A stretch of DNA of 64,000 bases from Candidatus Babeliales bacterium (GTDB lineage Bacteria > Babelota > Babeliae > Babelales > RVW-14), in assembly GCA_041671765.1 (NCBI GenBank), contig JBAZAX010000006.1:2231-66230 (forward strand), written 5' to 3'. The notes beneath the pieces are model-generated. The model saw only the letters and a program-made list of their open reading frames with translations. It ran no database searches and was not told the DNA's origin. This document shows, piece by piece, positions 23,272 to 35,370 of the stretch. The position numbers and the translations under genes were made by a program. The stretch's first letter is position 1, and every line of letters begins with the position of its first letter.

Positions 23272-23405
23272 AAAAAGCCCCAGCACTTTTTACCTACTGG
23301 CACACAAACAACTACATTTATTGCTTTAATTATTTTCAAATCTTGTTATCATTCATCAAAGCAATTTTATTTAATTCAAAAGGATTTTCATGCTTAAAAA
23401 AATAG
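23272..23405 (+). repeat. Copy A of a ~130-bp conserved 5' module (upstream region, SD and first 5 codons)
   Basis: aaaaagcccc..cacacaaacaactacatttattgctttaattattttcaaatcttgttatcattcatcaaagcaattttatttaattcaaaaggattttcATGcttaaaaaaata aligns at roughly 85 percent identity by eye with 25875-26010. Confidence 0.8.
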
Positions 23406-24694
23406 TTGTGCTGATTCTTTTTTTCAGCACAGGTACAAATTCTAATAATTTATTTTCTGAAGTTAACCTGAATAATGTTGAATCAATAGTTGCACTTTTA
23501 AGAGTTCCAACAATTGTAATTAAAAACAATTTAGACTCCAAATCCAGTAAAAAATATCACCATATATTGAATTTAACAGTAGATGTACTTCGACTTGCAA
23601 ATGAGGTGCTTTCTATAATTAATAAAAATGGAGAATCAGAATTTCATAAATACGATTATCTCTGGGCTGTCTATGATACAGCAAGTTTAATTTCACACAT
23701 TGCTGATCTGTTTGACAAATCTGAAGATATAATTCAAAACCCAAAAGATATACAAAAGCTAGAGGGATTACTAAGAGATTTTCATACAAAAATGATTCCA
23801 ATAATCGAAGGACTAACTGCATTTTTTGCTTCACTTAAAGAAGGTAACACAATTGAAGATGTAGATTTTAGATTAAAGTGTAAAGCACTGAATTCTGCTA
23901 TTCGTCTATTTGATAATATAATTATCAGTAAAAATAATAGTACAGAACAAATATTATACGCAGCATCATTAGTAATAAGCATTATTTTTTCAATCAAAGA
24001 TCTTTATGAAATTAGTAAAATAAAAGATATACGTTTTAAAGAAGAGACTGCTCGAATACAGGCAGAAGAAGCGCGACAGAAAAAAATACTAGAGGAAGAA
24101 CAAATGTGCAAACAAGCAGAAGAAACACGGTTGCAAAAAGTTAGAGCTGAAGAGTTTGCACGTAAACAAGTGGAGGAGTCTCGTCAAAGAAAAGTTAGGG
24201 AAGAAGAACAGGCACTAAGGCAAAAAGAAGAGGCTAGATTGCAAAAAATTCGAGATGAAGAGAATGAACGTATGCGAAGAAGAATGCTGGATGAACCGCA
24301 GCACAAAAGCACTACACAACGCCAGCAAGCAGGTAACCCTGTCATATTTTCTGAGGAAAGTTTAAGAGGCCTGCACATAGTTAAAAATCCTAGAGAGCGT
24401 CTTGATGCTATAAATGTCGAAATAAGGGTTACGGAAGAAGAAATACTGCGAAAATCCATTATGGATAGGTTTAAACACCCTTTTAGTGCAATGCAATCAT
24501 CCCCGCTAGATAAATATTTTCCTCGAGATTCGTTTTTTGGAGAAATTCGTGCCGAGCAGGCAGAAATAAATAGAATTAGAGAAATAGCCAGATACGAATC
24601 CGAACAAATGTCAGAAACAAATCGCTTGCAAATGAAATTGGCAGGGCTGAAGGAACAGGCTCAAGCTCTCCAATCACATGGATTTTTTTGGTAA
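23390..24694 (+). CDS. Hypothetical secreted protein: helical N-domain plus E/R/K/Q coiled-coil repeats
   Basis: Leader MLKKIVVLILFFSTGTNS. Imperfect repeats EEARQKKILEEEQ / AEETRLQKVRAEE / VEESRQRKVREEEQ / KEEARLQKIRDEE. The N-domain is paralogous to 19926..21062. Confidence 0.6.
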   Translation: MLKKIVVLILFFSTGTNSNNLFSEVNLNNVESIVALLRVPTIVIKNNLDSKSSKKYHHILNLTVDVLRLANEVLSIINKNGESEFHKYDYLWAVYDTASLISHIADLFDKSEDIIQNPKDIQKLEGLLRDFHTKMIPIIEGLTAFFASLKEGNTIEDVDFRLKCKALNSAIRLFDNIIISKNNSTEQILYAASLVISIIFSIKDLYEISKIKDIRFKEETARIQAEEARQKKILEEEQMCKQAEETRLQKVRAEEFARKQVEESRQRKVREEEQALRQKEEARLQKIRDEENERMRRRMLDEPQHKSTTQRQQAGNPVIFSEESLRGLHIVKNPRERLDAINVEIRVTEEEILRKSIMDRFKHPFSAMQSSPLDKYFPRDSFFGEIRAEQAEINRIREIARYESEQMSETNRLQMKLAGLKEQAQALQSHGFFW

Positions 24695-24764: not shown

Positions 24765-25805
24765 TTAAAATATAAAATTGATACGCATAGGATCTACAAC
24801 ATTAATGGGTTTTCTACAAAATGGACACGTGTTTCCATTAAGACAATCACTGTTATGCCATTCGACCATGCATTTGATACATAGCTTATGATTACAACCT
24901 GGCCATGGTACAAGAAATTTTTTATTCAGGCATATTGGACAATCTTCAAAGCATTTCGGATTATTTGCTATATGTTCCATTAAATACAAGGTAAATAAGT
25001 AATCAGGATACTTATTTTTAAGAATATAAATTGCGCTTTGTCCATAGCTATTCTGGATTGTTGGGTCTGCACCATAACTTAACAATAATTGGATAAGATT
25101 TGATCTAATTGGATAAAAGACAGAAATTAAAGGTGTGCATTTATTTTTGTCTTGCATATTAGGATTTGCGCCATTTTCAAGTAGCAGGCGTGTAATGTGA
25201 TAATTACCAGAATAAACTGCTGAATATAGAGCGGTGTCACCGTTTTCATCGGCTGCATTAACATCAGCGCCTTTTATTATTAACGCCTCCGTTGCTCCTG
25301 AATTTTGAATTGATACGGCAGTCTTCAATAGATATTCTGAAGATGTCTCTGAAGAGCGTTTGATAATACAAGCATTAGGATTTGCTCCTGCTTCAATAAT
25401 AGCTGTGAAATAAAGACAATCTTTTTTGGTTTGTGTTTGAATTTCGTTTAAAAGAAATATATCAATAGGTCGATTATCTTTTGAATATTTTCGCTTAAAG
25501 CTACGAGATGACGTAGTCGATAAATAACCTAACCCATCTGAAAATCCGACGGTAACTTCAGCTCTATGTTGGAGTACATGTTTTGATTCACTTCCCAAAT
25601 CTGCTTCGTCATCCGATGGATCAAAATCATCATCGCTGTAATAAAAGTCTGTCCAACGTTGCTGTATTTCACGTTGTATTTGTCTTTGGGTAACTTGGGT
25701 GTCTGTAGATTCAGAATGCTCATCGGATTCTTGCATTGCAAAAAGATCAAAATTTAACAAAGCAAACAAAATTAAAATTTTAAACGTGTAAAACTTCTGA
25801 TTCAT
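24765..25805 (-). CDS. Ankyrin-repeat protein with C-terminal RING-HC (C3HC4) finger: eukaryote-like E3 ubiquitin ligase candidate
   Basis: Ankyrin repeats (GADVNAADENGDTALYSAVYSGNYHITRLLLENGANPNMQDKNKCTPL). RING CPICLNKKFLVPWPGCNHKLCIKCMVEWHNSDCLNGNTCPFCRKPI. Leader MNQKFYTFKILILFALLNFDLFA followed by Met24. Confidence 0.8.
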   Translation of the reverse strand: MNQKFYTFKILILFALLNFDLFAMQESDEHSESTDTQVTQRQIQREIQQRWTDFYYSDDDFDPSDDEADLGSESKHVLQHRAEVTVGFSDGLGYLSTTSSRSFKRKYSKDNRPIDIFLLNEIQTQTKKDCLYFTAIIEAGANPNACIIKRSSETSSEYLLKTAVSIQNSGATEALIIKGADVNAADENGDTALYSAVYSGNYHITRLLLENGANPNMQDKNKCTPLISVFYPIRSNLIQLLLSYGADPTIQNSYGQSAIYILKNKYPDYLFTLYLMEHIANNPKCFEDCPICLNKKFLVPWPGCNHKLCIKCMVEWHNSDCLNGNTCPFCRKPINVVDPMRINFIF

Positions 25806-25874: not shown

Positions 25875-26010
25875 TAAAAAGCCCATAGTTTTTAACTTGC
25901 TGACACACAAAATAACTAAATTTATTGCTTTAATCATTCTAATTTCTTGCTATCCTTCATCAATGCAATTTCATTTAATTCAAAAGGATTTTTATGTTAA
26001 AAAAAATATA
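25875..26010 (+). repeat. Copy B of the ~130-bp conserved 5' module
   Basis: See copy A. It ends with aattcaaaaggatttttATGttaaaaaaaata. Confidence 0.8.
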
Positions 26011-26719
26011 TTTTTTTTCGATTTTAATAACAATTTCAACAACATGTCTTGTAAGCAATTTATCTGCAACGCAGAATCCAGCAGAACAAAAAACAGAAGC
26101 ATTAACACCAAAAACAGAAGACGCTTTTATTAAAGAGTTTGTGGATAAAATGAAAAGTGACAAAATAAATTATGATGGAAAAACTTTAACTTTATATGCC
26201 TCTTCAAATTTATATGAATATATTGTTGCCATTTTTGATTTAGTGATTTTTACATCGCTTCTAGGTAAGAGTCTAGATAACAATGATAAAGATATCCGCT
26301 TGGTTTGTGGCTCTATATTTCTGATATTCGATTTGATCGGGATATTCCTTTTATACCAAAATTTACACTATGATCGAAGTAAGGTTCCTTTCTTAATAAT
26401 GAATGATAATGAAATTAAATTTTGGGATGGGAAAAGTATAAAATGGGAATATGTTGATAAAGTTTTATACAAAAATATTTTTGAATCAAATGGACAGTAT
26501 CTTTCAAGTTACTATGTATTCGAATTATGTGACAAATTTTTAAATGTATTATTTAAGATATGTGATAGAAGGAAGAATTCGCCAATTTCTCCAAATAATT
26601 TATCTGTAATTTTGGAGCACTACCTCGATAAAAATAAAACAACATTAAAAAGTGAAATTGAAAAACTTACTCGTGAGGCAATAAAAAAGTATTCTTCTGA
26701 GGCTGCAAAATCTGCATAA
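25994..26719 (+). CDS. Hypothetical membrane protein (leader plus two central TM helices; possibly bacterial PH-like C-domain)
   Basis: ORF track. MLKKIYFFSILITISTTCLVSNLSA leader. Hydrophobic pair YIVAIFDLVIFTSLLG / CGSIFLIFDLIGIFLLY. No firm family. Confidence 0.55.
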   Translation: MLKKIYFFSILITISTTCLVSNLSATQNPAEQKTEALTPKTEDAFIKEFVDKMKSDKINYDGKTLTLYASSNLYEYIVAIFDLVIFTSLLGKSLDNNDKDIRLVCGSIFLIFDLIGIFLLYQNLHYDRSKVPFLIMNDNEIKFWDGKSIKWEYVDKVLYKNIFESNGQYLSSYYVFELCDKFLNVLFKICDRRKNSPISPNNLSVILEHYLDKNKTTLKSEIEKLTREAIKKYSSEAAKSA

Positions 26720-26787: not shown

Positions 26788-27333
26788 TTACTTATCGCAT
26801 ATGTTAAACAAATCCATAAATAATAAATGTTCAACGGTAACATTTGGACCAAAAATTGTTACACCACCTGGCATTTTAAATCCTTCTACGGTTTCGTGCA
26901 TATCAGCATATCCAATTTCATAATATCCATTTTTAATCAAAACTGATGAAATTTTTTCATGTAAAGCAAATTGTTTTTTAGTATATGCTTGATTATCGGC
27001 ATCGCGAAGAACCGGCGACATTCTATCTTCATCCATATTTTTAACTGAGTACTCATGTTGAATATAAAATAATGAAGCGACTTTTGAAATATGAAGTTTT
27101 GTTTCATATGAAATTTCAAATTCGCCTTTTTTATAATCGTCAAAATGAATGTACCAAATTTTAGATGGGTTATCTGGATAATCTTGTATTTCTTCTAATT
27201 TAAATTCTTGTTTATCGATATATTCCCTTATTTTATCAAACAGTTGTATTTGCTTACTACAACATATCTTGAAAGCACTATAATCATTTTTTTTATAAAA
27301 TTTGTCTATTGCATTGAAAACAATATCTATCAT
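26788..27333 (-). CDS. Hypothetical 181-aa cytoplasmic protein; positional candidate for the immunity protein of the upstream rRNase toxin
   Basis: Starts 16 nt downstream of the toxin stop on the same strand. No signal peptide. No similarity that I can recognise to colicin E3 immunity (about 85 aa) or other immunity families. Function is inferred from position only. Confidence 0.45.
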   Translation of the reverse strand: MIDIVFNAIDKFYKKNDYSAFKICCSKQIQLFDKIREYIDKQEFKLEEIQDYPDNPSKIWYIHFDDYKKGEFEISYETKLHISKVASLFYIQHEYSVKNMDEDRMSPVLRDADNQAYTKKQFALHEKISSVLIKNGYYEIGYADMHETVEGFKMPGGVTIFGPNVTVEHLLFMDLFNICDK

Positions 27334-27349
27334 TATTATTAAACCTTTC

Positions 27350-30300
27350 TTATTTCATCTTTAAATCATGCCGGCCTGATAAATCAGCTTTCTTTGTTTG
27401 TTTAAAATCAAAATCAACTTCGCCCAAATGTTTTCCATTTCTGTTTAGAGCTTCAAATCTTCCATGTTGAGAGTCTACAGAATAAAACATACGAGCATTC
27501 TCGTCTTTATAAACATCTCGTTTATTAATTCTTGATAAGTCTCTGTCAAATTTTAAACCACTTGCTTGAGCAACTCTTTCAGCCTCAGTTTTTATCGCCG
27601 CAACTCTTTCACCCGGTGGCATTCTAGAAATTCTCTGTTCAAACTCAATTATTCTAGCAGATCTTCCTGATGCTTGAACAGGTTCAGTTGGAATTTGTCT
27701 GCCGCCATCACCTCTTCTAAAACTTCCCAAGTCTTCAGCAGCCGCTGCGCCTTCGCGCTCAAAATCACCTACAATTCTTGCCACGGCTCCATCAAAAGAG
27801 CCTTCTGTTATAACCAGCTCTGGATTTCTTTGAAGCGCTTCTGCAACCTTTCTCGCAAAATCTTGCCCTTTTTGCTGTGCAATCTTTCTAAATTTACCTA
27901 AATTTTCAGATATTGTTGAAGTTGGTGTAAAAATATTTTTGACTGCTGCTGGCAGGTTTGCAAAATTTGGAATACTGTGTGCAATTTCCTGCTCTCTAAT
28001 TACAAGTTCGCCACATTCTTTTATGGCTGTGGCTGCCAATTGAAGGTTATGTACTCTTGGCAATGTTGTTGCAAATGAAACTTCTAATGCAGGAGTTAAA
28101 TATCTACAAGAAAAAACATGACATAATCCATAAAAAATTAATTCTGTTCTTTCCGGACCTGTCATTGCTTCAAGCTTGTCAACCATCGGCTTAATAATTG
28201 GCTTTAATTCTCTGTTAAACGTTTCTATTCCTAACTCAGGGTTTTCTTCAATCATGCCACCAATTAAAGCCATTTTTGTGCTTAAAATTGTAAGCGCTTT
28301 GGTTCCTTCTTTCAATTTGGCCAAAGTTTCGGCAGGATGTGTAGCAATGTCTGTAAAGAATTGAAGATTTTCAAGCCCGAAACGCTGTAATCCTGCGGCT
28401 GCTCGTTGAGCATGATTTCCAAATATTTTTGCCGTATTTTGCCCGTATTTCACCATGTATCGTGCAGCAAACCTTAATGCATATGCACTTCCATCATCCC
28501 CATCGGTTTGCGCATAGAGATCTGCAAATTTATTTAACACACCCACAAATTCACACGTGCTTTTCAAGGTTGTATCACTACTGGCAATTCGAGCTAGAGC
28601 CTCATTGTAGCTGCTTGTTTTTTCTGTGAATTTTTTAAACTGACCTGGAGTTAAACCTCCACTTTGTGTTGTTGCCGCAGGTTCTTCCATGCCGACGACA
28701 GAGTGCGGAATTACAAAAGGTTCGTCTATCACCGTAGGACTAGAAGAAAAATCTCCTGTCCTTTTTATTTTTAATGGACGAGCTGTATCATCAAAAATAA
28801 TTGGAAAAGCTGATGTCCCAGCAGAACATGCTGCAGATTCCGGATCTTGTGGAACATCTCGCATTTCAACATCATGAGGCAATGTAGTCCGTAAATTTAA
28901 TAGTGGTCGGTCTAAATAAGGAGTGTATCTTGTTTCCTCTGGTCCTTTACCAAAAAAATGTGCACCGTCCATTGGAGGAGGGGACGCAAAAAGATATCTT
29001 AAAAGATGGTCTGTGCCGGCCGTTGCAACGGCCCTTGCTGCTCCAAAGCTAAAATCTCTGGCCGCTACTTTGGATCTTTCAGCAACGGCAGTTGTTGTCC
29101 TTGAAAAAAATTCCCGAACTCTTTCTCCTAATGTTGGTTGTTGTGGTACTGATTTTTCAACTGAGGGTTGAGGTGCTGCACTACTTATATCAGGTCGTAG
29201 ATCATGAGTTTCACCTGAGCGTCTTCCTAGGGATTCTTGCCGTAATCTCTCAAATCCTTCGGGATCATTAACAACAAAATCAGCAATATCCTCAGGTATA
29301 CCAGCACTAATTAAAGATTGCTTTTCTCTGGCCTTACTCTCTTGTTCCAATTGTGCTTGTTGTTGTCGTGGTCTTTGACAAATTCTTTCAAATTCTTCAG
29401 GTTCATATGCCGCCCAATGTGCAATATCTTCAGGAATTCCAGCACTAATTAATCGTTGCATATCTTCGGTTTTATCTTGAGCGCCATCTCCACTACCAGC
29501 AACATTTCCAAGTAACTCTTCAGCTCCCGGACTAGAAGTATAATATCTTATTTTCGTATCAGTTGATAACCTTATTAAATCTAAATCATTCACTTGATCA
29601 GGAAATTTAATTACCAATTTAGGGTCACCATTCTTTGACGAATCTACTGTAGCATCTACAACATAATCACGTTTCTCAGAAGATCCACCAACCCATGTCC
29701 TTGGATTAAGAACTTTAACAACTTTTTTAGTCCCATGAAGAACAGCTTTGGTTCTATAAAATCGTTTTTTTCCGTCTTTAGAAGTTCCTACACATTCAAA
29801 ATCACTTGATAAAATAAGCTCCTTCGACATTCCACGTTTATTTAAAAGATCCGAGAAACCCATATCTTTTGATATAAAATCTTTTATATTTTTTAAATCT
29901 TTTTCAACCTGTTTGGACAAATTTATTGCCAAATCTCTTTGAATGTAAAAAAGATATGTTTCACCATTTGTGCATAATTTGGGAAATTGATTCTGTTTTA
30001 AGGATACAATATACCCAGCAATTTCCTGCTCCCCTATTTTATGAAGTATTGCGGCAGGAACTGCTGCCACGCTATGCAATCGCCCAATAAATTCCTCAGC
30101 TAGTGCTTCCAATTCTGGCACAGTGATCCCTGGTTTTAATTCAAGACGAAGCCTCAACAAATTCTTTAAATCGGTTACTAATAATTCCGTATAATATTCT
30201 ACCGATTGTCCTCCTCCTAGACACGCCTGAGTTAATAAATGTGCATTACGAAAGGCCGAAGCACTGGCTATATTGGCTACAATAACTCCCTTTTGTTCTA

Positions 30301-30877
30301 TTTCACTCAATTTGTCAAATGCTGCGCGTTGTTTTGCCGCAATAATTTTTGCAACAGGAAATGGGTCTATAAGAGACCGCTCAAAAGTCTGGTTACCAGG
30401 ACTCTGTCTAATTTGTATCCAATAATTTTCACCACAGCTCTCAGATTCCACATCTCTGCCGCCTCCACCGCTAGATCCATTACCCCCACCGCCAGATGCA
30501 TCATGACTTCCAGAAGATCCCTCATGAAAACCATCTGAGGCAGCTCCAATTTTACTTGAATGGCGTAACACAAACAACATATATTCATCCTCTGGCTGTA
30601 TTAGATGAAACACCGCTGTCCCATCTTCGAGATTACCAGTTTGAACACAGTAATTTCCTTGTGCATAATTGTGTTTCGCACGTATTTTGTCCCATCTTAC
30701 TATAGATACGTCGTATTCGGTTTTTGTTATTCCGGGATATTTTGAAGCTTCGGTCCAAACCCTATCATACAAAGCCCTTCTATATTCAGGGATTTTATCC
30801 ATTCCATTTGAAAGACCAACCTGATTTACAACAAAAAGATAAATCAAAATATTTTTGAATTTCATGATAACCTCCAA
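27350..30877 (-). CDS. 1175-aa leader-bearing polymorphic-toxin-like protein with C-terminal colicin E3-type cytotoxic rRNase domain
   Basis: C-terminus ...NKRDVYKDENARMFYSVDSQHGRFEALNRNGKHLGEVDFDFKQTKKADLSGRHDLKMK aligns with colicin E3 ...GRKIYEWDSQHGELEGYRASDGQHLGSFDPKTGNQLKGPDPKRNIKKYL as I recall it. The catalytic D, H and E of DSQHGxxE are conserved; DSQHG is at nt 27461-27475. Leader KFKNILIYLFVVNQVGLSNG. Gly-rich tract GSSGSHDASGGGGNGSSGGGG. Confidence 0.8.
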   Translation of the reverse strand: MEVIMKFKNILIYLFVVNQVGLSNGMDKIPEYRRALYDRVWTEASKYPGITKTEYDVSIVRWDKIRAKHNYAQGNYCVQTGNLEDGTAVFHLIQPEDEYMLFVLRHSSKIGAASDGFHEGSSGSHDASGGGGNGSSGGGGRDVESESCGENYWIQIRQSPGNQTFERSLIDPFPVAKIIAAKQRAAFDKLSEIEQKGVIVANIASASAFRNAHLLTQACLGGGQSVEYYTELLVTDLKNLLRLRLELKPGITVPELEALAEEFIGRLHSVAAVPAAILHKIGEQEIAGYIVSLKQNQFPKLCTNGETYLFYIQRDLAINLSKQVEKDLKNIKDFISKDMGFSDLLNKRGMSKELILSSDFECVGTSKDGKKRFYRTKAVLHGTKKVVKVLNPRTWVGGSSEKRDYVVDATVDSSKNGDPKLVIKFPDQVNDLDLIRLSTDTKIRYYTSSPGAEELLGNVAGSGDGAQDKTEDMQRLISAGIPEDIAHWAAYEPEEFERICQRPRQQQAQLEQESKAREKQSLISAGIPEDIADFVVNDPEGFERLRQESLGRRSGETHDLRPDISSAAPQPSVEKSVPQQPTLGERVREFFSRTTTAVAERSKVAARDFSFGAARAVATAGTDHLLRYLFASPPPMDGAHFFGKGPEETRYTPYLDRPLLNLRTTLPHDVEMRDVPQDPESAACSAGTSAFPIIFDDTARPLKIKRTGDFSSSPTVIDEPFVIPHSVVGMEEPAATTQSGGLTPGQFKKFTEKTSSYNEALARIASSDTTLKSTCEFVGVLNKFADLYAQTDGDDGSAYALRFAARYMVKYGQNTAKIFGNHAQRAAAGLQRFGLENLQFFTDIATHPAETLAKLKEGTKALTILSTKMALIGGMIEENPELGIETFNRELKPIIKPMVDKLEAMTGPERTELIFYGLCHVFSCRYLTPALEVSFATTLPRVHNLQLAATAIKECGELVIREQEIAHSIPNFANLPAAVKNIFTPTSTISENLGKFRKIAQQKGQDFARKVAEALQRNPELVITEGSFDGAVARIVGDFEREGAAAAEDLGSFRRGDGGRQIPTEPVQASGRSARIIEFEQRISRMPPGERVAAIKTEAERVAQASGLKFDRDLSRINKRDVYKDENARMFYSVDSQHGRFEALNRNGKHLGEVDFDFKQTKKADLSGRHDLKMK

Positions 30878-30892
30878 ATTTTTTATTTTATA

Positions 30893-31879
30893 TCATTTAT
30901 CACATGCCCCAGCGGCTGCGCTAGATGCTACAGCTCCCGCTACAGGTGCTAATGGTGGGCAAAAAGATCCTACAAAGGCGAAAGCTCCTAAATAAGCTAA
31001 CGATGGCCATAGTTGTGCAAAAAATTTCTTACAGTAATGGGTATCAAATTTATCCCAGTATTCTTTGTCTGTAATCCATTCTCCATTAACCTTTGCCCCA
31101 TTAGCTTTTAATTTTTTGGCAAAAATTTCTAAGTCATTTGGATTAGTAAACGCAATATTGCTAAATAAACTTTTTGTTGCCCAAGAGACTTGGTCTAAAT
31201 TTGTGCAGTTATCAAAATTTAGGTTTAAAAAATAGCTGTTTTTAAAAATAGTTCCAAAAAAGTTGGCACTTGTTACTGAACTTTTTTCATTTCTGCCTAA
31301 AAGACAGCACCTTGAAAAACTTGTTTGATCAAATATGAGACCATTACCAATCTGAACCGTTTCGTATATTTTTACTAAATCGAGTTTTGCTGCCCTAAAA
31401 TTTATATTTTCTAGGGTACATCCAGAAAAATTTACAGTATCCCACTCGCTGCTATCCATATTTATATTGCAAAGCCTAGATACCATAAAATCCGTTTCTA
31501 AGAGCTTTGCATTAGGCATTAGTGAATTACTTATTTCCGAAGAATCAAAAATAACTTTTGCAAAAATACAAGATGTTAAATTGGAATTGTTTAAAATTTT
31601 TGAATTGTTGAATACCAAATCGCAGTATGTAACGGTTGATAAATTACATGAATCAAATGTAACATTTGTAAGCATTGAATTATGAAAAAATGCACCGGTT
31701 AAATTTACGTTTGCAAAAGTAACATCTGACAAATCCATATTTTCGATTTTTGCTTTTGACAAATCTGCATTTTCAAACTTTTTCCCTCCTGCAAGTAATT
31801 CTTTATATACCTGTTGGTCATATGCAAATAAGTTTGCGATATTTAAAATTAAAATAAGTGAAAAAATATATTTCTTCAT
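30893..31879 (-). CDS. Pentapeptide-repeat protein with signal peptide and C-terminal hydrophobic/Cys-rich tail
   Basis: A(D/N)LxX repeats: ADLSKAKIENMDLSDVTFANVNLTGAFFHNSMLTNVTFDSCNLS. Leader MKKYIFSLILILNIANLFA. Tail LGAFAFVGSFCPPLAPVAGAVASSAAAGACDK. Confidence 0.85.
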   Translation of the reverse strand: MKKYIFSLILILNIANLFAYDQQVYKELLAGGKKFENADLSKAKIENMDLSDVTFANVNLTGAFFHNSMLTNVTFDSCNLSTVTYCDLVFNNSKILNNSNLTSCIFAKVIFDSSEISNSLMPNAKLLETDFMVSRLCNINMDSSEWDTVNFSGCTLENINFRAAKLDLVKIYETVQIGNGLIFDQTSFSRCCLLGRNEKSSVTSANFFGTIFKNSYFLNLNFDNCTNLDQVSWATKSLFSNIAFTNPNDLEIFAKKLKANGAKVNGEWITDKEYWDKFDTHYCKKFFAQLWPSLAYLGAFAFVGSFCPPLAPVAGAVASSAAAGACDK

Positions 31880-31889
31880 GATAAATCTC

Positions 31890-33182
31890 CTAATTAGCTT
31901 TTTGTCTTTTTATCTCTGCAGCTATAAAATCCCTAATTTTTGCCTCTTGTTGCTGTTGTCTACCTGTTATACGTTCTTCAGCTCTTGATATGATGCTTGA
32001 TATTGTTCCTTGTGCGGCACTAGATGCTAACGTAATAAAAAAATCTTTCCAATCTTTTTCTGTTGTAGGCCAAAGTACTTTAAATTCGTCTGCAGGAACT
32101 TCATTTACGCAAGCACCCTTGTGTCTTAAATCATCCAAATCTCTTGGATTGCTGCTCACAATGTTATCAAATAGAGTTCCAACTGCTTTTCTAATTCTTC
32201 CAATATTCGTACAATTACCAAGCTTTACATGTTGTATAAGCACATCTTCTAATGATGCTCCATAAAAATCAGAATTTAGTAGAATGCTGTTGATATTTGA
32301 AATACCAAAATCTCTTTGCCAGTCCAAAAATTTAGAATAAGCAAAATTTAAAACTGTAACAGATGGGGAAATCTCACACTCAAATTTTAATAAGTCACCA
32401 TAGAACAAACCAGGATCTTTTCTTATTGCTGGAGAATATTGGGCAAGCTTACTCAGTACACCCATCTTGTTAAAAGAAATGCGAGCGGCCAAATCATCTC
32501 TCTCTGTGATACCATCGGTTCTTTCACCAGATTTTGGAGTTCTGGAAATGGTCTTCCCTCTAATACACCCAGTTTTTATTGTGGCATACCTGAAATTCAA
32601 ATTGGTACCTATGATCGTTGCATTACTTATATCAAGGCCTACGATGTAAGCCCTACTGAAATCTATGTTCATTAGCAAAGATTCGTTAAAATATAGTTCT
32701 TCAGCTTGTATGTGCACCATATTTACATGATCAATTACGGAGGTTGAGAATCTGACATTTTTTAACTTTGCATTAGCAAAAGAAACATTCTGAATTGCAA
32801 CATCTTTTAATATTAGCGAACTTATTGTTGCGTTTTCGAATTTTGTACCATCTGTGATAGCTATGTTATGAGCTGTTATATTTGTTATTGTTGAATTACT
32901 TAAATCCGTGTTCTTTAAAGTTGCGTTACATAATTGAACATTCGAAAGAATTGCATTATTTAACTTTGCATTTGTTAAATTTGCACCATTCAATTTTGTC
33001 CCAATTAATTTTGCGCCTACCAACGATGCTCCTGTTAAATCTGCCCCATTCAAATCAAAGTCGGTTAAATCGGCTCCATCCAACTGAGCATTAACTAAAT
33101 TTTTATCAGAAGATTGAGCTAGTAGTTTTGCACGTTGGAGATCTAATTCTTGTTGTTTTTTGATACCACAAATCTTTGCCAT
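31890..33182 (-). CDS. Pentapeptide-repeat protein (no leader)
   Basis: AQLDGADLTDFDLNGADLTGASLVGAKLIGTKLNGANLTNAKLNNAILSNVQLCNATLKNTDLSNSTI. The C-terminal non-repeat module is paralogous to that of 30893..31879. Confidence 0.85.
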   Translation of the reverse strand: MAKICGIKKQQELDLQRAKLLAQSSDKNLVNAQLDGADLTDFDLNGADLTGASLVGAKLIGTKLNGANLTNAKLNNAILSNVQLCNATLKNTDLSNSTITNITAHNIAITDGTKFENATISSLILKDVAIQNVSFANAKLKNVRFSTSVIDHVNMVHIQAEELYFNESLLMNIDFSRAYIVGLDISNATIIGTNLNFRYATIKTGCIRGKTISRTPKSGERTDGITERDDLAARISFNKMGVLSKLAQYSPAIRKDPGLFYGDLLKFECEISPSVTVLNFAYSKFLDWQRDFGISNINSILLNSDFYGASLEDVLIQHVKLGNCTNIGRIRKAVGTLFDNIVSSNPRDLDDLRHKGACVNEVPADEFKVLWPTTEKDWKDFFITLASSAAQGTISSIISRAEERITGRQQQQEAKIRDFIAAEIKRQKAN

Positions 33183-33255: not shown

Positions 33256-35370
33256 TCAGATTCTTTTAATGCGTAAAATAAAAGGACAACCTAAAATTCT
33301 TTGCACCATAGCTGAAGTACCAGCTTGATGACAACGCTGACATGCATAACTTTTATCAAAAAATGGTGCGAAGTGTGCCTCTAAAATTTCTTGAACACTT
33401 TTTAACTGGTTAGGACAAATAGTCGTCTTGGGTTGCACTACCCCACCTTTATCTGAAGTATATTCGCAGCCTAATATATCTTTTCTTTTTAAACACTGAG
33501 TAATTATATTAATACTCAGATTAAGAGGTTGTTTATCTTGGGCATGTAACTGACCAAGTAACAAATTTAAAAATTCATCTGCAACTTGAAAAGCCACTTC
33601 ATGATTTTTACTTTGTTCGATCAATATTTTTGCTTGTTCTACAAGATTTTGATCAGTCACTGGCTCACTCGAGGTTTTTAATTTTTTTATAAGATTAATA
33701 AGACTGAAGACGAAAAAATTATCTTCATAATTATTTTCACTTGAAACCAATTGTGTCTTAAAGTTTTTAAGATTAGAAAGACACTGAACGACTGAATTCA
33801 AATATGGAACTATACTAACTTGCATAAGCCCAACATTTTGACGTTTTTCTAATGCCTCTGCTTGAATTCTTAACTCTTCTTGACGTTTCTTTATCGCCTC
33901 TTCTCGTAGTCTAGCCTCTTCCTGATTTCTCAGGGCCTCTTCTTTTTGGCTGCTATGAGTAATCCAGTCATAAAATTTTCTAAAAAAACTTTTATATTCT
34001 TGTTCCTGTAGTTGCTGAATAGAAGGCAAAGTACCTGCCATACTTGCTGCAGCCTCAGGGTCCTGTAAATCGACGACCTCTTTTCTTTTTTGGCTTGAGG
34101 GTTCCGACAGGTCTGCATCATCATCATTTGGATTAAAACCTCTGGCTTCAGGTCTAGCTCCAGATTGTTGTGCTGCCGGTTGGGCAGGTGCTTGCGCCGT
34201 TGGGCGCTTTTTTTGATAAAACAGAATGTAGGGAGTAAAATTTTGAAAACTTAACGGAAAACTACCTGCTTTAACAATACCTTGTATAACTTGCTCATTT
34301 ATTTCGCTGACGGATGAATCATTGTATACATACCATTTTCCATTTTCAAAATCTTTAACGATAGAGATATAGTGGTTGCAACCGTGACAAACAAAACCCG
34401 CTAATTCATACAAAAGATTTACACCTTCTCGGTTTTTGAGTTCATCTGCTGCATAAGGTTTTAAGTCGAGTTCCATAGTGAATGAGACAGGATTGATTAT
34501 CTTGCGACCATCTGCAGTAAATCTTTTTAACGACATGATTAAAATATCGTGATCTTCTAAAATTTCTGAAGATTTAAAAGATGTGTTAACTTTGTTACAG
34601 CTACCACATTGATAGCCGTTTGCAAGTGATGGATGAAAGAAGTCTGTCAATAACTCCTGTAATTCAGTAAGTGTGTTATGTCTCTCAATTTTATCAAGCG
34701 GCAATGCAATTGTTTCATACGTTTCATGTTTTTGGGACTCGAACGGACATACACTTATACCATCAGTCGCTAAGCATTTAACTTTCTGATTAAGCTTTAA
34801 CTCTAAAGAAATTTTGTCCGGTTCATGAATTTGGCTTAATAGTAAAGTTAAAAATTCATCAGCATCCTGAATAGATTTTCCTTTATTGGCAGGAATATCC
34901 TCAATTAACTTTTTTGCCCGCTCAGTAAAGTCTTTATCTTTTACCTCTGATGCACTGGTTGTTCTTAAATTTTCAAATAATTTTATTAAATTTAAAACAA
35001 GAATTTTTTTAGCACGATTTTCTGGCGTATCGTCAATACGTTCTTGTTGATAAAATGCTTTGTTTCCCAATAATGTTGATCTGAAAACTTTAAGATTTGA
35101 AAGACACTGAACAACGGCATTTATATAACAAATGTTACGGCCGCCATTTTTTAAGCCCACATTCCTATGACTTGCAACAGTTCTTGTTGAACTTACTGAA
35201 TCAAATGTCCTTTTTTGGCCCTCTGGAGTTCGAGAAGCTTGAGTACTTTCAGTTTCGGGTTGATCATCCTCTGCATCTCGCATTGCGTAAAGATTAACTT
35301 GTAAAAGTGCCTGAAACAGCACAAACAGCATCGAAAGAACATGAAAATTCTTCTTCACGATAACCCCCAT
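33256..35370 (-). CDS. Tandem USP protein: one intact USP/UCH (C19-like) deubiquitinase domain plus a degenerate, truncated second copy
   Basis: Domain 1 has Cys box GLKNGGRNICYINAVVQCLSNL (Cys81, nt 35128-35130) and His box CHGCNHYISIVKDFENGKWYVYNDSSV. Domain 2 has NVGLMQVSIVPYLNSVVQCLSNL, where Pro replaces the catalytic Cys, and ends at ILRIKRI before any His box. Leader VLSMLFVLFQALLQVNLYA followed by Met30. Confidence 0.8.
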   Translation of the reverse strand: MGVIVKKNFHVLSMLFVLFQALLQVNLYAMRDAEDDQPETESTQASRTPEGQKRTFDSVSSTRTVASHRNVGLKNGGRNICYINAVVQCLSNLKVFRSTLLGNKAFYQQERIDDTPENRAKKILVLNLIKLFENLRTTSASEVKDKDFTERAKKLIEDIPANKGKSIQDADEFLTLLLSQIHEPDKISLELKLNQKVKCLATDGISVCPFESQKHETYETIALPLDKIERHNTLTELQELLTDFFHPSLANGYQCGSCNKVNTSFKSSEILEDHDILIMSLKRFTADGRKIINPVSFTMELDLKPYAADELKNREGVNLLYELAGFVCHGCNHYISIVKDFENGKWYVYNDSSVSEINEQVIQGIVKAGSFPLSFQNFTPYILFYQKKRPTAQAPAQPAAQQSGARPEARGFNPNDDDADLSEPSSQKRKEVVDLQDPEAAASMAGTLPSIQQLQEQEYKSFFRKFYDWITHSSQKEEALRNQEEARLREEAIKKRQEELRIQAEALEKRQNVGLMQVSIVPYLNSVVQCLSNLKNFKTQLVSSENNYEDNFFVFSLINLIKKLKTSSEPVTDQNLVEQAKILIEQSKNHEVAFQVADEFLNLLLGQLHAQDKQPLNLSINIITQCLKRKDILGCEYTSDKGGVVQPKTTICPNQLKSVQEILEAHFAPFFDKSYACQRCHQAGTSAMVQRILGCPFILRIKRI

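Follow-up and report, generated by a model that had tools for sequence, protein, structure and literature searches.

Colicin E3 cleaves 16S ribosomal RNA (rRNA) between A1493 and G1494, and its immunity protein binds it. The E3-type domain itself (Tox-ColE3) is well understood and already named automatically at NCBI, and it has been known since 2012 as one of the tips found in polymorphic toxins. A Sec class of polymorphic toxins, with lineage-specific N-terminal regions, has also been described; it includes MafB, Microscilla-N, and the Amoebophilus proteins APD1 and APD2 (PMC3482391). Here, we analyze a stretch of 64,000 nucleotides (nts) from Candidatus Babeliales bacterium, an uncultured member of the phylum Dependentiae (contig JBAZAX010000006.1, positions 2,231 to 66,230), which we call the window, and in it a gene of 1171 amino acids (aa) plus stop codon (27350-30865), followed by a gene of 181 aa (26788-27333). 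Both genes and all their features lie on the minus strand, and coordinates are those of the window. The larger protein is laid out as a predicted signal peptide, a lineage-specific carrier, a swappable C-terminal cassette, and, at its very end, an E3-type RNase domain acting on rRNA (rRNase). The locus is probably a toxin-immunity module made up of two genes and of the polymorphic-toxin kind, in which an E3-type ribonuclease (RNase) with its cognate immunity protein would be exported by Sec and used mainly against competing bacteria.

The last ~105 residues of the protein are a colicin E3/pyocin S6-type rRNase domain (aa ~1065-1171, 27353-27673), and the resemblance of this C-terminus to colicin E3 is well past chance. 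An initial annotation, made from the letters alone, had assigned an E3-like endonuclease motif to 27353-27640 and had quoted, without giving a strand, a peptide ending in ...MFYSVDSQHGRFEALNRNGKHLGEVDFDFKQTKKADLSGRHDLKMK. That peptide is the C-terminus of the minus-strand open reading frame (ORF). The place of the domain was right, and homology and the structural model make it somewhat longer. Membership in the E3-type rRNase family, for which the annotation suggested a profile search against the Pfam colicin E3 family and a structure prediction with superposition, is borne out by Pfam, by homologues, and by the predicted fold. The Pfam family PF09000 ('Cytotoxic') matches with 26.9 bits, above its gathering cut-off of 22 bits (E = 6e-6, aa 1119-1165 in the numbering of a 1175-aa reading of the gene), and relatives at other loci match PF09000 as well. 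With the last 126 aa as query, a search of 5.8 billion proteins returns ten proteins at 44-61% identity (best E 2.6e-27), several of them named 'colicin E3/pyocin S6 family cytotoxin'. An exhaustive phmmer search with the whole protein against 1.84 billion representatives gives 325 matches at E ≤ 0.001, nearly all confined to aa ~1065-1171; the matched proteins are 86-2662 aa long, and the match is at their very C-terminal end. The long matches that we scanned are CdiA proteins (TPS, haemagglutinin/FHA repeats, PT-VENN), one Rhs-repeat protein, and one LXG protein. Because the matches are C-terminal only, across CdiA, Rhs, and LXG proteins, the E3 tip is a widely shared polymorphic-toxin module.

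How much of the E3 active site is present? When compared by phmmer to the PDB sequences, ...YSVDSQHGRFEALNR.NGKHLGEVD of the window protein pairs with ...YEWDSQHGELEGYRASDGQHLGSFD of colicin E3 (1e44_B). In this alignment, D1131, H1134, and E1138 map onto colicin E3 residues D55, H58, and E62 in the numbering of the RNase domain (D510, H513, and E517 in that of the full protein). The catalytic core D1131-S-Q-H1134-G-R-F-E1138 lies at 27452-27475, as established by the alignment to 1e44_B, by translation, and by conservation. The initial annotation had placed DSQHG at 27461-27475, and it translates exactly there, on the minus strand. The colicin E3 sequence that it quoted agrees with 1e44_B over KRKRWTGDKGRKIYEWDSQHGELEGYRASDGQHLGSFDP, a comparison that covers the quotation up to its last 19 residues.

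We measured conservation in an alignment of the C-termini of 153 representatives of the subfamily. The annotation had claimed that the D-x-x-H-x-x-x-E core has its Asp, His, and Glu; all three are there, and they are 98-99% conserved (D1131 99%, H1134 98%, E1138 99%). Around them, R1116 (96%), Y1119 (95%), G1135 (96%), G1144 (100%), H1146 (97%), E1149 (93%), D1161 (95%), G1164 (93%), and H1166 (99%) are also highly conserved, and the window protein keeps every one of these positions. H1146 (27428-27430), in the G-x-H-L-G-E block, is the second histidine, which is conserved throughout the fold according to Zhang et al. 2012 (PMC3482391). The same authors give the Tox-ColE3 signature as R, Dxx[HK], E, H (PMC3482391), and the window domain fits it via R1116, D1131, H1134, E1138, and H1146. 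A late arginine had been noted in the annotation too. R1165 is indeed present (R1165-H1166, 27368-27373), and it aligns without gaps to E3 R545 (R90 of the domain), but Arg occurs at that position in only 14% of the subfamily, where Gly is commonest; it is the neighboring H1166 that is nearly invariant.

The predicted structure points the same way. For the last 126 aa, AlphaFold2 predicts three helices and then five beta-strands, with a predicted local distance difference test (pLDDT) score of 82 on average and of 90-94 in the folded part. When compared to the PDB with Foldseek, the five top-ranked matches are all colicin E3 RNase (1e44_B, 1jch_A, 4udm_B, 4v5k_AY, 2b5u_A), with probability 1.00, E-values from 2.5e-3 to 9e-3, and root-mean-square deviation (rmsd) of 1.8-3.5 Å (2.7 Å over 64 columns). 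Sixth in rank, with E about 0.9, comes the CdiA-CT of Enterobacter cloacae, which cleaves 16S rRNA, and lower ranks are noise. Searched by sequence with a profile of the subfamily, the PDB yields only a marginal E3 match (E = 0.04), together with spurious matches to 'Cake' repeats.

The domain shares with those of colicin E3, cloacin DF13, and pyocin S6 the D-x-x-H-G-x-x-E core and, identically spaced, the G-x-H-x-G block. It also has the extreme C-terminal place, with a candidate immunity gene following it, and E3 RNase is the only high-probability match of its predicted fold. It is only ~30% identical to colicin E3, from which the window subfamily is set apart by a helical segment added at the N-terminus (FE...LPPGERVA.IK), by a C-terminal D-x-S-G-x-H that is invariant, and by the lack of conservation at the equivalent of R545. 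The rest of the protein shows no similarity to colicin or pyocin translocation or receptor domains; its alignment to full-length E3 chains is limited to ~40 residues at the C-terminus. In addition, we know of no colicin with a Sec leader, unlike the window protein, in which one is predicted.

Directly 3′ of the toxin gene is the 181-aa gene. The spacer between the toxin stop and the start of this gene is of 16 nts (27334-27349) and includes a GAAAGG ribosome-binding site, an arrangement that suggests that the two genes are co-transcribed. The stop, ribosome-binding site, and start junction, TAAGAAAGGTTTAA.ATAATG, recurs in the related locus L002. The 181-aa protein has no signal peptide and belongs to a family without a name. 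It is likely the immunity protein for the E3-type toxin, as judged from how the two genes travel together. It has eight homologues at 50-62% identity. In L001, an E3 tip that stands alone (89 aa, 64% identical to that of the window) lies directly 5′ of a 183-aa immunity homologue (61%). L004, L005, and L006 each have a 421-aa protein with an E3 tip (52%) at its end and, after it, a tandem pair of 181-aa homologues (50%, 48%). In L002, an immunity homologue (59%) is found 3′ of an E3 cassette broken by an insertion sequence (IS). We observe that in every intact related locus (four independent contexts, L001, L004, L005, and L006) the immunity family stands directly 3′ of an E3-type domain, and that identity to the window pair falls in parallel for toxin and immunity protein: 64/61, 60/59, and 52/50%. 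In a scan of one genome per GTDB species, the immunity family appears at only three loci, L017 among them.

The 181-aa family does not correspond to any immunity family with which we compared it. Pfam, NCBIfam, and PADLOC give no match for the protein, and a sequence-profile search of the PDB with the family returns nothing meaningful. The best Foldseek match of its model is to Crl (E about 0.1, rmsd 6-10 Å), which we judge non-significant, so we do not take Crl as its fold; colicin E3 immunity chains are not among the PDB fold matches listed for the model. A kinship with Imm45 was also rejected, with an hhalign probability of 0.2% when the family is compared to the immunity neighbors of related toxins. 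By these comparisons it is unrelated to Im3/cloacin immunity, which is ~84 aa long as opposed to 181. The E3-subfamily toxins on CdiA-CT, Rhs-CT, and LXG proteins resemble the window module in the toxin domain (45-60% identical) and in having a tip with an adjacent immunity gene, but they pair with Imm45 or with a 108-aa immunity protein, to which the window family is unrelated. It appears, then, to be an unnamed candidate immunity family to be set alongside Im3/cloacin immunity and Imm45, and seemingly an unreported one.

Consider now the ~1000 aa that precede the toxin domain. The longest ORF reading (27350-30877) starts at a TTG at 30877 and gives 1175 aa. That TTG sits within the ribosome-binding site GGAGG (30871-30875), which is read off the sequence about 5-6 nts 5′ of an ATG at 30865, and for this reason we take the ATG as the real start. 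The independent gene call on an identical metagenome contig, L010, starts at the same ATG and also gives 1171 aa. From this start, aa 1-21 (30803-30865) are a predicted Sec signal peptide, MKFK / NILIYLFVVNQVGL / SNG, with a basic n-region, a hydrophobic core of ~14 aa, and a c-region of small residues. The initial annotation had proposed a Sec-type leader, and this is plausible: the L002 relative matches MKFKNILIYLFVVNQVGLSNG at 77% identity over 22 residues, and the ~550 aa that follow barely align. No 19-aa stretch reaches transmembrane-level hydropathy, and no segment after the leader is of transmembrane grade.

Past the leader, the carrier holds an internal duplication, LISAGIPEDIA...(E/D)PE(E/G)FER, in two copies that start at aa 472 and aa 518 (29282-29452). 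This region coincides with a gap of Ns in the public scaffold L011 (L011:3844-3966), and the 666-aa database cluster representative P0019, which could be taken for a natural truncation, was rejected as such, being an artefact of that assembly gap. A conserved carrier core follows (aa ~600-800, 28466-29068), which contains PPPMDGAHFFGKGPEETRYTPYLDRPLLNL and is 52% identical over 213 aa to the L002 relative by tblastn (47-65% in a windowed identity profile). Exhaustive phmmer searches find only two relatives of aa 1-505, the uncultured-bacterium proteins P0021 and P0025, and confine the carrier family so far to two or three Babeliales-like contigs. Overlapping the core, aa 726-1171 (27353-28690) form a swappable C-terminal cassette, made of a ~340-aa pre-toxin region and the toxin domain. 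The pre-toxin region (aa 726-1064) moves with the tip, and we speculate that it could be an entry module like the entry domains of CdiA-CT.

The closest described architectures are the Sec-class toxins MafB, Microscilla-N, and APD1/APD2, with which the window protein shares a predicted signal peptide, a lineage-restricted region, a variable C-terminal toxin with the immunity gene directly 3′, and, in relatives of the window locus, orphan toxin-tip and immunity cassettes nearby. Compared with MafB, it has neither MafB-N (DUF1020) nor any other named N-terminal domain at E ≤ 1, and no lipobox; no MafA-like partner was recognised, and the place upstream is taken by pentapeptide-repeat genes. CdiA-CT, Rhs-CT, and LXG toxins are built on TPS/FHA/VENN, Rhs, or LXG scaffolds, and the window protein has none of these: a Pfam scan at E ≤ 1 finds no Rhs repeats, no PAAR, no TPS/FHA/VENN of contact-dependent inhibition (CDI) systems, and no LXG/WXG, in agreement with the annotation, which had recognised no such delivery marker.

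The C-terminal cassette is exchanged among relatives, and L002 shows how. This locus is syntenic with the window, with a pentapeptide-repeat gene directly 5′ of the large gene. Its 1332-aa protein (L002:485-4823) shares the leader and the core (window aa ~600-800) and then continues into an unrelated C-terminus of ~330 aa, followed by an unrelated 112-aa gene. Downstream, a 408-aa orphan ORF (P0020) is 48.5% identical over 410 aa to window aa 726-1131. The first 90 aa of this orphan are 81% identical to the matching stretch of the L002 main gene, after which the main gene diverges, and this shared stretch supplies the homology needed for cassette exchange. The E3 domain of the orphan ends in ...LYSVD; then comes an IS (region L002:4913-8546, with helix-turn-helix and rve transposase genes at 6222-7806); and then the frame resumes with ...TQHGRFEILNEEGKHLGEVDFDF...HDLNTR*, followed by the intact immunity homologue. 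The IS is inserted between VD and TQHG, exactly in the catalytic motif, so the displaced cassette of L002 has been inactivated, and its immunity gene retained. As for the C-terminus that took its place, neither it nor its 112-aa partner has a Pfam, NCBIfam, or PDB match. They may be an undescribed toxin-immunity pair; a PD-(D/E)xK-like motif seen by eye (FID...WDVK) was not confirmed.

Could the window cassette itself be a relic, horizontally acquired and now decaying or inactive? The dead, displaced, and IS-split cassette of L002 is what suggests such an explanation, together with R1165, the sole E3 'catalytic' residue that lacks conservation in the subfamily. In the window, by contrast, the ORF is intact over 1171 codons with a good ribosome-binding site, all 11 subfamily positions with conservation of 93% or more are retained, and the locus, immunity gene intact, is found at 99.9-100% identity across several independent metagenome assemblies, of which one or more came from groundwater. 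We regard a relic as very improbable.

A second carrier (L001:860-7681 and L004:6720-9107) is weakly Hint-like at its N-terminus and also has a membrane segment rich in Gly and a linker rich in Lys; its tip is E3 in L004 and Ntox17 in L001. L001 has further cassettes, including a 160-aa carrier fragment with another tip and an unrelated 181-aa partner. Displacement of cassettes, alternative tips, and orphan cassettes are the defining behaviors of polymorphic toxin systems. In the window itself, tblastn and sequence searches find no further carrier paralogues, E3 tips, or orphan immunity genes. In L017 (L017:1132-6543), we also note that four or more orphan toxin-tip cassettes stand in an array, with the junction ...QQPEITSVGDI..L..PGECFNDFEKLS.EV in common and a 180-aa immunity homologue as the last gene. 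This array adjoins genes that by eye resemble ATP/ADP translocases, and the record is labeled 'uncultured Pseudomonadota'.

The toxin domain also allows for a quite different explanation, in which the locus is an intracellular defense or addiction module (toxin-antitoxin or abortive infection, similar to Menshen NsnC) whose RNase is freed on phage attack. The PADLOC models for NsnC match the C-terminal ~90 residues with E = 7e-14, and NsnC effectors do bear polymorphic C-terminal RNase domains (PMC12065111). The match, however, is limited to model positions 200-290 of 291, which is the shared effector domain, and on that account we rejected an identification as Menshen NsnC: the two have homologous C-terminal RNase-type effector domains and the likeness extends to that domain only, and NsnC is cytoplasmic, as opposed to the predicted secretion of the window protein. 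Moreover, neither an NsnA nor an NsnB partner was recognised among the scanned neighbors, the protein has a predicted secretion leader and a 1000-aa carrier, and carrier exchange and orphan cassettes suit exported polymorphic toxins. A defense or addiction role thus seems highly unlikely to us.

How would a polymorphic toxin of this kind work? The 1171-aa protein would be exported through Sec by means of its N-terminal leader, and the lineage-specific carrier of ~1000 aa would then present or deliver the C-terminal cassette. By analogy with colicin E3, the RNase would cut small-subunit rRNA at the decoding center, at A1493/G1494 (E. coli numbering), and stop translation, using a putative active site formed by D1131, H1134, and E1138 and aided by two further conserved residues, H1146 and H1166. 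In the cytoplasm, the 181-aa protein would be the cognate immunity protein and may block the RNase by binding, again as in the colicin. Cassette and immunity gene together would be exchangeable between carriers, and the system could serve to kill or inhibit competing bacteria, including other Babeliales strains that share the host or niche.

Whose ribosomes are the target? The initial annotation had left this between competing bacteria, host organelles, and host ribosomes. Two elements absent from it, the adjacent immunity candidate and the swapping of cassettes, shift the likely target to other bacteria over the host. We consider other bacteria the probable target, with somewhat more reserve than attaches to the module as a whole. 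Dedicated, duplicated, and orphan immunity genes, and the displacement of cassettes, argue for conflict among bacteria. In endosymbionts, toxins directed at the host typically come without neighboring immunity genes, while classical polymorphic toxins have them and also show cassette displacement (PMC3482391). There is also the matter of export. A toxin that crosses the membrane by Sec does so unfolded, so that immunity in the cytoplasm would mainly be useful against an incoming toxin.

The alternative to be taken most seriously is that of a host-directed effector, in which the Sec-exported toxin cleaves the 18S rRNA of a protist or its mitochondrial small-subunit rRNA, and the 181-aa protein guards the ribosomes of the producer. 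Cultured Dependentiae are intracellular parasites, and their proteins with signal peptides have been proposed to be effectors (PMC6561590). The neighbors of the toxin gene are eukaryote-like and leader-bearing (an ankyrin-RING protein, a UCH deubiquitinase, pentapeptide repeats), and the window protein has no bacterial contact-dependent delivery domain at E ≤ 1. The decoding center is a universal target, and colicin E3 reportedly cuts the 18S rRNA of isolated eukaryotic ribosomes (review PMC4639596). Against a host target, dedicated, tandem, and orphan immunity genes with cassette displacement are marks of inter-bacterial conflict that are reportedly absent from the host-directed toxins of endosymbionts (PMC3482391); the closest relatives of the toxin domain are on CdiA, Rhs, and LXG antibacterial toxins; and cytoplasmic immunity would again be of most use against a toxin from outside, Sec substrates being unfolded. 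We therefore hold a host-directed effector to be unlikely. Slightly less likely still is its fuller form, a polymorphic-toxin cassette system repurposed for the host, in which the E3-type rRNase of a Babeliales parasite cuts the cytosolic or mitochondrial decoding center of a protist and the 181-aa protein is for self-protection only. If that were true, it would be, as far as our literature searches and knowledge go, the first decoding-center-cleaving effector described for an intracellular parasite. And if host ribosomes were the target, this would be a new kind of shut-off of host translation.

Returning to an antibacterial toxin-immunity module, several points weigh against it. Dependentiae are host-dependent intracellular parasites for which only Sec has been described for export (PMC6561590), and for intracellular parasites with Sec only, the opportunity for delivery from bacterium to bacterium is unclear. 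No delivery domain can be recognised in the carrier, nor is there a known route for it through the outer membrane or into the target cell. The toxin gene sits among genes resembling eukaryote-directed effectors, the ankyrin-RING, UCH deubiquitinase, and pentapeptide-repeat genes just mentioned. The fold match of the toxin domain is specific but modest, with template modeling (TM) scores of 0.40-0.51 (target TM 0.51) at a Foldseek E-value of about 2.5e-3. For the immunity protein, the model has a moderate pLDDT of 76 with no informative fold match, and with eight homologues and three GTDB loci only, the linkage statistics are small. Finally, RNase activity, the cleavage site, immunity by binding, Sec export, and a bacterial target are what we infer, as distinct from membership in the family, the intact motif, the predicted fold, the conserved pairing of the genes, and the displacement of cassettes, which the analysis shows.

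Our search for literature on polymorphic toxins, or on toxins, in Dependentiae or Babeliales located nothing relevant. In the literature searched, such a system in Babeliales/Dependentiae appears to be unreported, and so do the lineage-specific, presumably Sec-exported carrier and the 181-aa candidate immunity family. The locus shows that classical polymorphic toxin-immunity systems, cassette displacement included, occur in members of Dependentiae, a little-known and host-dependent phylum studied almost entirely via metagenomes; by implication, these parasites have bacterial competitors to face and to fight. The exact sequences of both proteins are already in NCBI. The toxin has an entry under the automatic name 'colicin E3/pyocin S6 family cytotoxin [Candidatus Babeliales bacterium]', and the downstream 181-aa sequence comes from metagenome-assembled genomes of 'Candidatus Babeliales bacterium'.

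The window is a piece of bacterial chromosome, as its housekeeping genes indicate (sigma-70, DnaG, MurG, DciA, MgsA, MurJ, Lon, and BipA). Its G+C content is 31-39%; its base composition reveals no composition island around the toxin locus, and there are no tRNA genes in the window that could be a possible integration site. It is rich in eukaryote-like genes with leaders, among them ankyrin-RING, UCH deubiquitinase, pentapeptide-repeat, and several ankyrin proteins.

Two eukaryote-like genes of the ubiquitin system flank the toxin locus. One (33256-35370, minus strand) encodes a 704-aa UCH-family deubiquitinase (PF00443, E = 1.8e-48), and the other (24765-25805, minus strand) a leader-bearing protein with ankyrin repeats and a RING finger. 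Directly 5′ of the toxin gene are two tandem pentapeptide-repeat genes (30893-33182, minus strand), an arrangement kept in L002; the 328-aa pentapeptide-repeat protein has by eye a leader-like hydrophobic N-terminus. Also beside the toxin locus are two leader-bearing ORFans without a Pfam match, one of 434 aa with a charged, coiled-coil-like middle rich in E, R, and Q (23390-24694, plus strand), and one of 241 aa (25994-26719, plus strand).

Farther away, a 1268-aa leader-bearing protein (38048-41854, minus strand) has a region rich in S, T, and Q and a (QLQAQ)n tract, with only a weak match to DUF5848; it includes several repeats of ~110-130 aa (AEMTRVNNIL...YDSQL...FWTALT.LHNARP...). Three tandem ankyrin-repeat genes of 282, 255, and 269 aa are found at 52404-54886 (plus strand). 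The primary sigma-70 homologue (9323-11743, minus strand) is unusually long, with 806 aa, and its region 1.2 begins at aa 317.

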